A stretch of 64,000 nucleotides of DNA, from assembly GCF_003334315.1 (NCBI RefSeq), contig NZ_QOWR01000006.1; one strand, written 5' to 3'. Shown piece by piece: positions 20,541-25,431 of the stretch (position 1 is the first letter of the stretch; each line of letters opens with the position of its first letter). The translations under genes and the position numbers were made by a program. The stretch is from Escherichia coli. GTDB taxonomy: Bacteria; Pseudomonadota; Gammaproteobacteria; Enterobacterales; Enterobacteriaceae. Below the pieces are notes generated by a model, which was given only the letters and a program-made list of their open reading frames with translations, searched no databases and was not told the origin of the DNA.

Positions 20541-21110
20541 ATGAAACGACTCATTGTAGGCATCAGCGGTGCCAGCGGCGCGATTTATGGCGTGCGCTTA
20601 TTACAGGTTCTGCGCGATGTCACAGATATCGAAACGCATCTGGTGATGAGCCAGGCAGCGCGCCAGACCTTATCCCTCGAAACGGATTTTTCTCTGCGCG
20701 AAGTGCAGGCATTAGCCGATGTCACGCACGATGCGCGCGATATTGCCGCCAGCATCTCTTCCGGTTCTTTCCAGACGCTGGGGATGGTGATTTTACCCTG
20801 TTCAATCAAAACCCTTTCCGGCATTGTCCATAGCTATACTGATGGCTTACTGACCCGTGCGGCAGATGTGGTGCTGAAAGAGCGTCGCCCGTTGGTGCTC
20901 TGCGTGCGTGAAACACCATTGCACTTAGGCCATCTGCGTTTAATGACTCAGGCGGCAGAAATCGGTGCGGTGATTATGCCTCCCGTTCCGGCGTTTTATC
21001 ATCGCCCGCAATCCCTTGATGATGTGATAAATCAGACGGTTAATCGTGTTCTTGACCAGTTTGCGATAACCCTTCCTGAAGATCTCTTTGCCCGCTGGCA
21101 GGGCGCATAA
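20541..21110 (+). CDS. ubiX: Flavin prenyltransferase UbiX, 189 aa
   Basis: GISGASGAIYG flavoprotein motif; recognised sequence. Confidence 0.95.
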   Translation: MKRLIVGISGASGAIYGVRLLQVLRDVTDIETHLVMSQAARQTLSLETDFSLREVQALADVTHDARDIAASISSGSFQTLGMVILPCSIKTLSGIVHSYTDGLLTRAADVVLKERRPLVLCVRETPLHLGHLRLMTQAAEIGAVIMPPVPAFYHRPQSLDDVINQTVNRVLDQFAITLPEDLFARWQGA

Positions 21111-21118
21111 CTCCGCTG

Positions 21119-21141
21119 TTGCCCTGTTTCAGGGCAATTTT
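21119..21141 (+). terminator. Intrinsic terminator downstream of ubiX
   Basis: Hairpin ttgccct-gtttc-agggcaa followed by tttt. Confidence 0.65.
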
Positions 21142-21291
21142 GCAACCGCGATCAAATCCTCGACATTTTGTTTCTGCCATTCAATCGAAACGCTGCGATT
21201 CAACCGCTATACCTGCTATCTTCAACTTCAGGACAATAATGCAACGTCTTATTAACATATTTAACGTTGAATGTTACTGTTGTCGTCAAGA

Positions 21292-21307
21292 TGGCATAAG
21301 ACCTGCA
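21292..21307 (+). promoter_or_regulatory. sigma54 (-24/-12) promoter candidate for argT
   Basis: tGGcat-aagac-ctGCa: GG and GC are spaced exactly as in the TGGCAC-N5-TTGCA consensus, ~70 bp upstream of the argT ATG; argT is a known Ntr-regulon gene. Confidence 0.65.
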
Positions 21308-21375
21308 TGAAAGAGCCTGCAAACACACAACACAATACACAACATAAAAAAGCCATTTTCACTTGAGGGTTATGT

Positions 21376-22158
21376 ATGAAGAAGTCGATTCTCGCTCTGT
21401 CTTTGTTAGTCGGTCTCTCCACAGCGGCTTCCAGCTATGCGGCGCTACCGGAGACGGTACGTATCGGAACCGATACCACCTACGCACCGTTCTCATCGAA
21501 AGATGCTAAAGGTGATTTTGTTGGCTTTGATATCGATCTCGGTAACGAGATGTGCAAACGGATGCAGGTGAAATGTACCTGGGTTGCCAGTGACTTTGAC
21601 GCGCTGATCCCCTCACTGAAAGCGAAAAAAATCGACGCTATTATTTCGTCGCTTTCCATTACCGATAAACGTCAGCAGGAGATTGCCTTCTCCGACAAGC
21701 TGTACGCCGCAGATTCTCGTTTGATTGCGGCCAAAGGTTCACCGATTCAGCCAACGCTGGATTCACTGAAAGGTAAACATGTTGGTGTGCTGCAGGGATC
21801 AACCCAGGAAGCTTACGCTAACGAGACCTGGCGTAGTAAAGGCGTGGATGTGGTGGCCTATGCCAACCAGGATTTGGTCTATTCCGATCTGGCTGCAGGA
21901 CGTCTGGATGCTGCGTTACAAGATGAAGTTGCTGCCAGCGAAGGATTCCTCAAGCAACCTGCTGGTAAAGATTTCGCCTTTGCTGGCTCATCAGTAAAAG
22001 ACAAAAAATACTTCGGTGATGGCACCGGTGTAGGGCTACGTAAAGATGATGCTGAACTGACGGCTGCCTTCAATAAGGCGCTTGGCGAGCTGCGTCAGGA
22101 CGGCACCTACGACAAGATGGCGAAAAAGTATTTCGACTTTAATGTCTACGGTGACTGA
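21376..22158 (+). CDS. argT: Lysine/arginine/ornithine-binding periplasmic protein ArgT, 260 aa
   Basis: Signal peptide plus recognised sequence; paralogue of the adjacent hisJ. Confidence 0.95.
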
Positions 22159-22216
22159 TACGTCGCTGGGAAGCTGTACCTGATGGAATGATCATCATGG
22201 TGCACGCCAGGTTTGT

Positions 22217-22233
22217 TGCACTATCGTGGTGCA
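22217..22233 (+). promoter_or_regulatory. NtrC-like enhancer palindrome upstream of hisJ
   Basis: tgcactatcgtggtgca resembles the NtrC consensus TGCACCA-N3-TGGTGCA; lies ~100 bp upstream of a weak -24-like TGGCAC at 22315. Confidence 0.4.
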
Positions 22234-22378
22234 TTGAAATGCATACTTAAGCATTTTTAATGAAAAATAATACGTCTAACGGGGCGGGATATTTTGCCTT
22301 GATGGTCAATTTTATGGCACGATAAGTGTAACAAACCTGTAAATATTCCCTATAAAAAGACTGTCAGTTGAGGACATT

Positions 22379-23161
22379 ATGAAAAAACTGGTGCTATCGC
22401 TCTCTCTGGTTCTGGCCTTCTCCAGCGCAACTGCGGCATTTGCTGCGATTCCGCAAAACATCCGCATCGGTACCGACCCGACCTATGCGCCATTTGAATC
22501 AAAAAATTCACAAGGCGAACTGGTTGGCTTCGATATCGATCTGGCAAAGGAATTATGCAAACGCATCAATACGCAATGTACGTTTGTCGAAAATCCGCTG
22601 GATGCGTTAATCCCGTCCTTAAAAGCGAAGAAGATTGACGCCATCATGTCATCGCTTTCCATTACGGAAAAACGTCAGCAAGAAATAGCCTTCACCGACA
22701 AACTGTACGCTGCCGATTCTCGTTTGGTGGTGGCGAAAAATTCTGACATTCAGCCGACAGTCGAGTCGCTGAAAGGCAAACGGGTAGGCGTATTGCAGGG
22801 CACCACCCAGGAGACGTTCGGTAATGAACATTGGGCACCAAAAGGCATTGAAATCGTCTCGTATCAGGGGCAGGACAACATTTATTCTGACCTGACTGCC
22901 GGACGTATTGATGCCGCGTTCCAGGATGAGGTCGCCGCCAGCGAAGGTTTCCTCAAACAACCTGTCGGTAAAGATTACAAATTCGGTGGCCCGTCTGTTA
23001 AAGATGAAAAACTGTTTGGCGTAGGGACCGGCATGGGCCTGCGTAAAGAAGATAACGAACTGCGCGAAGCACTGAACAAAGCCTTTGCCGAAATGCGCGC
23101 TGACGGTACTTACGAGAAATTAGCGAAAAAGTACTTCGATTTTGATGTTTATGGTGGCTAA
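22379..23161 (+). CDS. hisJ: Histidine-binding periplasmic protein HisJ, 260 aa
   Basis: Signal peptide plus recognised sequence. Confidence 0.95.
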
Positions 23162-23185
23162 TCGCCATCGGTGAAAGAAAGCCCG

Positions 23186-23209
23186 CTCCCTTCGGGTAAC
23201 CGGAGGGAG
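23186..23209 (+). other. Stable stem-loop in the hisJ-hisQ spacer
   Basis: ctcccttcgg-gtaa-ccggagggag: 10-bp stem with one G-U pair and no following U-tract, so not a classic terminator. Confidence 0.55.
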
Positions 23210-23250
23210 ACAAGAGGCGGTAATTCACCACACACGACAGGACAGGCAGC

Positions 23251-23937
23251 ATGTTGTATGGGTTTTCAGGTGTTATTTTACAGGGTGCGCTCGTCACGCT
23301 GGAGCTGGCTATCAGCTCTGTAGTGCTCGCTGTAATCATCGGTTTAATTGGCGCTGGCGGTAAGCTCTCGCAAAATCGGCTTTCGGGGCTGATTTTCGAA
23401 GGGTACACCACGCTGATTCGTGGCGTGCCGGACTTAGTGTTGATGCTGCTGATTTTCTACGGTTTGCAGATTGCGCTAAACACGGTGACGGAGGCGATGG
23501 GCGTCGGGCAGATTGATATCGATCCGATGGTCGCTGGTATTATCACTCTCGGTTTTATCTACGGTGCTTATTTTACCGAAACGTTCCGTGGTGCTTTTAT
23601 GGCAGTGCCGAAAGGACATATAGAGGCGGCGACGGCGTTCGGTTTTACTCGTGGGCAAGTGTTTCGGCGGATCATGTTTCCGGCGATGATGCGTTACGCC
23701 CTGCCAGGCATTGGCAACAACTGGCAGGTGATCCTCAAATCTACCGCACTGGTTTCGTTACTCGGCCTGGAAGATGTGGTCAAAGCCACCCAACTGGCAG
23801 GCAAAAGTACCTGGGAACCGTTCTATTTCGCCATCGTCTGTGGCGTGATTTACCTGGTTTTCACCACTGTTTCCAATGGTGTGCTGCTGTTCCTTGAGCG
23901 CCGCTACTCCGTGGGTGTGAAGAGGGCTGACCTGTGA
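23251..23937 (+). CDS. hisQ: Histidine/Lys/Arg/Orn ABC transporter permease HisQ, 228 aa
   Basis: Recognised sequence; multi-TM permease. Confidence 0.95.
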   Translation: MLYGFSGVILQGALVTLELAISSVVLAVIIGLIGAGGKLSQNRLSGLIFEGYTTLIRGVPDLVLMLLIFYGLQIALNTVTEAMGVGQIDIDPMVAGIITLGFIYGAYFTETFRGAFMAVPKGHIEAATAFGFTRGQVFRRIMFPAMMRYALPGIGNNWQVILKSTALVSLLGLEDVVKATQLAGKSTWEPFYFAIVCGVIYLVFTTVSNGVLLFLERRYSVGVKRADL

Positions 23938-24650
23938 TCGAAATCTTACATGAATACTGGAAACCGCTGCTGTGGACCGACGGTTATCGCTTTACTGGTG
24001 TGGCGATCACTCTGTGGCTGCTTATTTTGTCGGTAGTGATAGGCGGAGTCCTGGCGCTGTTTCTGGCGATTGGTCGTGTCTCCAGTAATAAATACATCCA
24101 GTTTCCAATCTGGTTATTTACCTATATTTTTCGCGGTACGCCGCTGTATGTTCAGTTGCTGGTGTTCTATTCCGGCATGTACACGCTTGAGATTGTTAAG
24201 GGAACCGAATTCCTTAACGCTTTCTTCCGCAGTGGCCTGAACTGTACCGTGCTGGCGCTGACGCTTAACACCTGCGCTTACACTACCGAGATTTTTGCTG
24301 GGGCAATCCGTTCGGTTCCGCATGGGGAAATTGAAGCCGCCAGAGCCTATGGCTTCTCGACTTTTAAAATGTATCGTTGCATTATTTTGCCTTCTGCGCT
24401 GCGTATTGCGTTACCGGCATACAGCAACGAAGTGATCCTGATGCTGCACTCTACTGCGCTGGCGTTTACGGCCACTGTGCCGGATCTGCTGAAAATAGCC
24501 CGCGATATTAACGCCGCCACGTATCAACCTTTTACCGCCTTCGGCATTGCCGCGGTGCTCTATTTAATCATCTCTTATGTCCTGATCAGCCTCTTTCGCA
24601 GAGCGGAAAAACGCTGGTTGCAGCATGTGAAACCTTCTTCAACGCACTGA
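23934..24650 (+). CDS. hisM: Histidine/Lys/Arg/Orn ABC transporter permease HisM, 238 aa
   Basis: GTG start overlapping the hisQ stop; recognised sequence. Confidence 0.95.
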
Positions 24651-24657
24651 GAATACG

Positions 24658-25431
24658 ATGTCCGAGAATAAATTAAACGTTATCGATTTGCACAAACGCT
24701 ACGGCAAACATGAAGTGCTGAAAGGGGTCTCACTGCAAGCGAATGCCGGAGATGTAATAAGCATCATCGGATCGTCGGGATCGGGGAAAAGTACCTTTCT
24801 GCGCTGCATTAACTTCCTCGAAAAACCGAGTGAAGGGTCGATCGTGGTCAATGGCCAGACGATCAATCTGGTGCGCGACAAAGACGGTCAACTCAAAGTC
24901 GCCGATAAAAATCAACTGCGCTTACTGCGCACACGCCTGACGATGGTATTCCAGCACTTCAATCTCTGGAGCCATATGACGGTGCTGGAAAACGTCATGG
25001 AAGCGCCGATTCAGGTGTTGGGCCTGAGCAAGCAGGAAGCGCGCGAGCGGGCGGTGAAGTATCTGGCAAATGTCGGGATAGACGAACGTGCGCAGGGGAA
25101 ATATCCGGTGCATCTTTCCGGCGGTCAGCAACAGCGTGTTTCTATCGCGCGGGCGCTGGCGATGGAACCGGAAGTTTTACTGTTTGATGAACCTACCTCG
25201 GCGCTCGATCCTGAACTGGTAGGCGAAGTGTTGCGTATTATGCAGCAACTGGCAGAAGAGGGGAAAACCATGGTGGTAGTGACTCACGAAATGGGCTTTG
25301 CTCGCCATGTTTCTACTCATGTCATTTTCCTCCATCAGGGGAAAATAGAAGAAGAGGGCGCGCCGGAGCAGTTATTTGGCAACCCGCAAAGCCCTCGTCT
25401 GCAACGGTTCCTTAAGGGATCGCTGAAATAA
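24658..25431 (+). CDS. hisP: Histidine/Lys/Arg/Orn ABC transporter ATPase HisP, 257 aa
   Basis: Walker [13 protein letters not shown] signature LSGGQQQRV, Walker [12 protein letters not shown]. Confidence 0.97.

Follow-up and report, generated by a model that had tools for sequence, protein, structure and literature searches.

The motif ahead of argT and its genomic setting

Is the -24/-12-like motif between ubiX and argT a working sigma-54 promoter, what would activate it, and which genes would it serve? A sequence-only reading had proposed a nitrogen-regulated, enhancer-dependent promoter at this position in the window, by which we mean the whole 64,000-nucleotide stretch of E. coli DNA that was analysed. 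We conclude, with a probability of roughly 93%, that this is the E. coli K-12 promoter argTp, through which sigma-54 (RpoN) directs transcription of argT. The promoter is already known, as argTp in EcoCyc and as argTr in Salmonella, and is not novel; it carries little weight as a discovery, being catalogued and even used as an engineering part. The published data agree with the reading of the motif, which makes the finding both correct and already known. Experimental proof in Salmonella is reportedly due to Ames & Nikaido 1985 and Schmitz et al. 1988. What the present analysis establishes is the exact sequence of the site, its rank within the window and its conservation across the family.

The 1.6-kb stretch around the motif matches E. 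coli K-12 MG1655 at 100% identity and was found in every complete E. coli genome searched (5,426/5,426). RefSeq places the genes purF, ubiX, argT, hisJ, hisQ, hisM, hisP and rpnB in this order, all on the + strand of the window. The window + strand corresponds to the MG1655 minus strand, and positions were converted as U00096.2 coordinate = 2447189 - window position. This conversion recovers both the published limits of the argT gene and the published 58-nt distance discussed below. The features around the motif are the following:

20541-21110, + strand: ubiX (RefSeq annotation)
21291-21307, + strand: very probable sigma-54 core of argTp, aTGGCAtaagaccTGCA (sequence, OS22 ChIP-seq motif, Salmonella ChIP-chip site, top matrix match and conservation)
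21318, + strand: predicted sigma-54 transcription start, 19 nt past the motif centre and 58 nt before the ATG (rule of Bonocora Table 1)
21376-22158, + strand: argT coding sequence, lysine/arginine/ornithine periplasmic binding protein (open reading frame and RefSeq annotation)
22379-23161, + strand: hisJ (RefSeq annotation)
22379-25431, + strand: hisJQMP, with the shared membrane and ATPase components, downstream in the cluster (annotation)

The motif tGGcataagacctGCa (also written TGGCATAAGACCTGCA) occupies exactly 21292-21307 on the + strand, within the 265-bp ubiX-argT spacer and oriented toward argT. Its -24 GG (21293-21294) and -12 GC (21305-21306) are separated by a gap of 10 nt, just as the sequence-only reading had described, and the distance which that reading gave as about 70 bp upstream of the argT start measures 68 nt from the end of the motif to the ATG at 21376. 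Compared with TGGCACGNNNNTTGCW, TGGCATAAGACCTGCA has three mismatches among the 12 specified positions; both doublets are intact, and the core deviates from the consensus at TGGCAT and CTGCA. The predicted sigma-54 start at 21318 would give the E. coli transcript a leader of 58 nt. No mapped sigma-54 start of argT in E. coli was found in the accessible literature, where the sole mapped argT start that we found is a sigma-70 start at about 21286, recorded in rich medium.

How often would such a motif be expected by chance? The window holds 12 copies of the pattern TGGC-N8-TGCW, where 7.7 +/- 2.9 are expected, and 88 of the full consensus with up to three mismatches, where 129 are expected, so that the latter is depleted if anything. 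We also scored the window with a weight matrix built from the 32 other intergenic sigma-54 ChIP-seq motifs of Bonocora et al. 2015, from which argT was excluded. The argT site ranked first among the 127,968 positions of the window with 15.2 bits, below the median of the training sites (17.7 bits, range 11.4-22.2), and about 0.91 equally good matches are expected per random 64 kb, as estimated from first-order Markov shuffles. Sequence alone does not set the argT motif apart from chance. The runner-up makes the same point:

110-126, - strand: second-best matrix match, CTGGCACAACATCCGCA, 15.0 bits, overlapping predicted open reading frames

This match is not among the sigma-54 sites in the main-text tables of the Bonocora ChIP-seq study and is probably a chance occurrence. 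Since it is not a reported sigma-54 site, calls made from the motif only can mislead. The locus nevertheless has some value for calibration, as the sequence-only reading picked the single best sigma-54 site of the 64 kb. The motif by itself is statistically uninformative at argT, and it is cross-species conservation and public ChIP data that decide the case.

Conservation and occupancy of the site

A scan with the ArgT protein across species-representative genomes yielded 80 loci from Enterobacteriaceae species, covering Escherichia, Citrobacter, Salmonella, Enterobacter, Klebsiella, Raoultella, Kosakonia, Trabulsiella, Pluralibacter, Franconibacter and other genera. All 80 loci carry exactly one TGGC-N8-TGCW within the 300 nt before argT, with an identical GG-N10-GC spacing (80/80) and at a position between -66 and -105 from the ATG. 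In a MAFFT alignment of these loci, the nine specified bases (TGGCA and TGCA) are 99.9% identical and the seven spacer bases 87.7%, while the remainder of the ubiX-argT spacer reaches 68.4%. When a mask of five plus four bases was moved along the alignment, one of 249 placements attained 99.9% identity, and this placement was the true site. The variants seen across species take the form TGGCA(T/C), a variable middle and (C/A/G)TGCA, a pattern that matches the one predicted from sigma-54 contacts. Taken together, motif, position and conservation are far beyond chance. In the accessible part of supplementary file 6 of Bonocora et al. (PMC4591121), which gives matrix scores of the site in other species, more than half of the scores exceed 9.

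Direct occupancy by sigma-54 has been reported in two species. Bonocora et al. 2015 (PMC4591121) list in their Table 1, as OS22, a sigma-54 ChIP-seq peak at 2425886 (FAT 12) with the motif ATGGCATAAGACCTGCA centred at 2425890 on the minus strand, argT as the downstream gene and a distance of 58 nt from the predicted start. Upon conversion, the motif centre falls at window position 21299 and the predicted start at 21318. The argTp entry of EcoCyc/RegulonDB for E. coli K-12 is the same object, its 17-mer and coordinates matching OS22; its EcoCyc status in 2015 was 'P', for predicted (PMC4591121). In Salmonella Typhimurium, ChIP-chip located sigma-54 on TGGCATAAGACCTGCATG (PMC3844500), the 18-mer of the argTr promoter at the STM2355 site, which is identical to that of E. 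coli. Samuels et al. 2013 (PMC3844500) count Salmonella argT among four operons earlier shown to be sigma-54-dependent, with NtrC as the activator and expression in the wild type 3.5-fold above that in delta-rpoN. In vitro, Shimada et al. 2021 (PMC8743547) obtained a gSELEX peak in the argT/ubiX spacer with the RpoN holoenzyme alone (61%) and with NtrC added (55%); argT and hisJ are not listed in the NtrC-alone gSELEX table of the main text.

NtrC has also been found at this promoter. Peak 13 of the NtrC ChIP-seq of nitrogen-starved E. coli (2425861-2425941; Brown et al. 2014, PMC4066584) converts to 21248-21328 and is centred on the argT promoter. The enrichment there is weak, at 5.4-fold versus 24-75-fold for other Ntr promoters, and all 21 listed units, argT included, were upregulated with RNA polymerase bound under nitrogen starvation (PMC4066584). 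Nguyen Le Minh et al. 2019 treat the nitrogen-regulated sigma-54 promoter of argT as an accepted fact. Others have demonstrated occupancy by sigma-54 and NtrC, induction in nitrogen-starved cells and, for Salmonella, dependence on rpoN, and the proposal of a sigma-54, nitrogen-regulated, enhancer-dependent argT promoter agrees with the published ChIP-seq, gSELEX, ChIP-chip, NtrC and expression data.

These results bear on the alternative that the motif is a functionless chance match. In the window, neither the number of pattern matches nor their matrix scores exceed chance level, and the second-best match is not a reported sigma-54 site, as such a reading would have it. Against it stand a core, spacing and position that are invariant in 80 species over a background of 68% identity, and sigma-54 has been detected directly on the site in two species as well as in vitro. 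The occupancy data and the 80-species conservation rule this alternative out, and we give it practically no chance of being true.

The spacer contains three other blocks that are conserved across genera: A (21139-21170), B (21207-21222) and C (21240-21268). Matches to the IHF and NtrC consensus were looked for in these blocks and none was found; a scan of 21100-21320 for IHF sites (WATCAANNNNTTR, up to one mismatch) gave no match, and a search of 21050-22450 against Rfam returned no known RNA family. A literature search on control of argT by ArgP or lysine yielded nothing usable for block C, which bears the inverted repeat ATGCAACGT-N16-ACGTTGAAT. Block B contains CTGCTATCTT, which is about 97% identical across genera.

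An overlapping sigma-70 promoter and the argT leader

A second promoter complicates the picture. Schaefer et al. 2015 (PMC4551910) found argT among the genes expressed more strongly in the absence of sigma-54: in rich medium, argT expression with rpoN was 23% of that in the delta-rpoN strain carrying the vector alone. Their Table S3 puts the sigma-54 motif between +6 and +22 relative to an active sigma-70 start and assigns it to class II, and sigma-54 lowered sigma-70 initiation in vitro (PMC4551910). The positions given there place the sigma-70 start at about 21286 in the window. The corresponding promoter elements, read by hand, and a further element of the leader are the following:

21252-21280, + strand: putative sigma-70 promoter, with a -35 TTAACA (21252-21257), a 17-bp spacer and an extended -10 TGtTACTGT (21272-21280)
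21320-21345, + strand: C/A-rich stretch of the argT 5' UTR, caaacacacaacacaatacacaacat (sequence)

An automated scan of the ubiX-argT spacer for sigma-70 promoters and terminators returned nothing. The -10 region of the putative sigma-70 promoter is 35% conserved and already varies within Escherichia, and the -35-like hexamer falls inside a strongly conserved block. As argT expression is about four-fold lower with rpoN in rich medium, much of it must be independent of the sigma-54 promoter.

The site could then be chiefly a brake, with the sigma-54 holoenzyme at +6 to +22 repressing the sigma-70 promoter of argT and with NtrC activation secondary or absent in E. coli. The class II assignment, the drop to 23% expression with rpoN and the reduced sigma-70 initiation in vitro all speak for this, as do the weakness of the NtrC ChIP peak and an upstream region without a consensus NtrC site. 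However, the sigma-70 -10 region, at 35% conservation, differs among Escherichia, and all 80 species keep the sigma-54 core unchanged. Repression of the sigma-70 promoter therefore cannot be why the core is conserved; it is maintained for its own sake. Furthermore, nitrogen starvation induces argT in cells that have NtrC, and argT is rpoN-dependent in Salmonella. We consider it very unlikely that braking is the main role of the site; the brake is best seen as an effect added to the promoter role, not as a replacement for it. Among the class I and II repressing sites of Schaefer et al. 2015 (patA, chaC and mdfA are others), argT itself is in class II, yet its site is more than a roadblock and also acts as a productive promoter that depends on an activator.

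The same overlap affects the reading of reporter data. Ma et al. 2020 (PMC7045595) employed 'argTp' as a metabolic engineering part. Mapping of the primers showed that their fragment spans 21120-21317 and includes the sigma-70 promoter too. Because the fragment holds both promoters and was used without an rpoN control, its high activity is not creditable to sigma-54 alone, and we discarded these reporter data as proof of sigma-54 dependence.

Downstream of the predicted start, the leader contains the C/A-rich stretch at 21320-21345, whose core ACACAACA is kept across genera. This stretch is likely the pairing site of the sRNA GcvB through its R1 seed. The argT mRNA is an R1-seed target of GcvB, verified in Salmonella and described as 'conserved' in E. 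coli, and its RIL-seq counts are very high.

NtrC sites and the extent of the unit

In the mechanism that we propose for argTp, the sigma-54 holoenzyme would settle on the -24 GG and -12 GC (21293-21306) as a stable closed complex. Under limiting nitrogen, phosphorylated NtrC would reach this complex by DNA looping and open it through ATP hydrolysis, and transcription would begin at about 21318, giving an mRNA with the 58-nt C/A-rich leader that is itself a likely target of GcvB. Part of the transcripts would probably run on into hisJQMP. When NtrC is inactive, the silent bound holoenzyme, lying just downstream of the sigma-70 start at about 21286, would dampen sigma-70 initiation.

From where would NtrC act? 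An NtrC enhancer is expected to be of the type TGCACC-N5-GGTGCA and to lie within looping distance, usually some 100-200 bp upstream; as a strict consensus we used TGCACC(W4)TGGTGCA, scored at 13 positions. The sequence-only reading had proposed a search for NtrC half-sites at 21140-21290. Our scan of this interval did not bear the idea out, as the best matches had four mismatches of 12 and nothing was convincing. The best upstream candidate lies at the end of ubiX:

21118-21142, + strand: palindrome GTTGCCCTG-TTT-CAGGGCAAT followed by TTTG, a 9-bp stem and then a U-run, 8 nt past the ubiX stop
21120-21136: weak NtrC-like 17-mer, TGCCCTGTTTCAGGGCA, within the palindrome

The palindrome is likely the intrinsic terminator of ubiX, to judge from its stem and U-run. 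The 17-mer has two mismatches against a degenerate NtrC pattern and five of 13 against the strict consensus, and the latter is the background level within the argT coding sequence. Near-consensus NtrC sites, such as TGCGCCCAGATGGTGCA, align with the position of the palindrome in 13 other species. The 'argTp' fragment of Ma et al. 2020 also begins in the palindrome, at 21120.

A far stronger NtrC site is found on the other side of argT, and with it a set of elements ahead of hisJ:

22217-22233, strand not applicable: TGCACTATCGTGGTGCA, a strong NtrC site located between argT and hisJ, some 0.9 kb downstream of argTp
22315-22330, + strand: TGGCACGATAAGTGTA, a second -24/-12-like element 49 nt upstream of the hisJ ATG, whose -12 doublet is GT instead of GC
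22328-22356, + strand: sigma-70-like GTAACA-N17-TATAAA ahead of hisJ, overlapping the -12 part of the TGGCACGATAAGTGTA element

TGCACTATCGTGGTGCA is the sole perfect match to the degenerate NtrC consensus in the 64 kb. It is covered by peak 12 of the NtrC ChIP-seq data, which converts to 22168-22248 and is enriched 23.7-fold (Brown et al. 2014, PMC4066584). Of 81 sequences, 67 carry an NtrC site with up to two mismatches in the 160 nt that follow the argT stop, and six carry one upstream of argT.

The arrangement recalls that of glnAp2, the textbook model of an NtrC-activated sigma-54 promoter, which likewise has a -24/-12 core bound by the sigma-54 holoenzyme, is activated by NtrC under nitrogen limitation and has a neighbouring sigma-70 promoter (glnAp1). 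At glnAp2, two strong NtrC sites lie at about -140 and -108. In contrast, argTp has no strong upstream NtrC site, and its nearest consensus site is 0.9 kb downstream. Activation of argTp may proceed by looping from this downstream site, by weak binding to the palindrome, or at high NtrC levels without any strong site.

The motif had also been read as the promoter for the whole argT-hisJQMP cluster. This holds for argT but needs to be qualified for hisJQMP, which has its own ArgR-repressed sigma-70 promoter (Nguyen Le Minh et al. 2019) and a strong NtrC site ahead of it; the GTAACA-N17-TATAAA at 22328-22356 is consistent with this published hisJ promoter. Between argT and hisJ there is no strong terminator, and we found only a weak hairpin at 22273-22286. 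Several papers, including Shimada et al. 2021 (PMC8743547), handle argT-hisJQMP as one unit. The missing terminator and this treatment as one unit make read-through from argTp into hisJQMP plausible.

Alternatively, argTp might drive argT alone, with nitrogen control of hisJQMP coming from the NtrC site at 22217-22233 and the element at 22315-22330. The consensus NtrC site stands about 95 bp upstream of this element, which ranks third by the sigma-54 matrix in the window, and the strongest local NtrC ChIP peak is found there, ahead of genes that have a promoter of their own. Across the 80 species, TGGCAC keeps a fixed distance from the hisJ ATG, -63 to -67, in nearly every genus, and the -12 GC of the element is retained in Citrobacter, where it has the canonical form TGGCACGATAACTGCA, in Salmonella (…CCGCA) and in others. 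In Escherichia, however, this GC is GT, and no sigma-54 ChIP-seq, ChIP-chip or gSELEX signal at hisJ has been reported in E. coli or Salmonella. The lack of a strong terminator between argT and hisJ, and their treatment as one unit in databases and papers, also argue against separate control, which we regard as possible but doubtful. Our preferred reading remains that argTp serves argT and that some of its transcripts probably continue into hisJQMP.

The two sides of argT may be connected in another way. The working enhancer of argTp could be the strongly conserved site at 22217-22233 itself, acting by looping from 0.9 kb downstream, past argT, and the TGGCAC...GT element close to hisJ in Escherichia could be what is left of a second sigma-54 promoter, now decayed, that formerly used the same enhancer. 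We think this combination rather unlikely. If the enhancer did act from downstream, the weak NtrC signal over the argT promoter would arise indirectly, from crosslinking through the loop.
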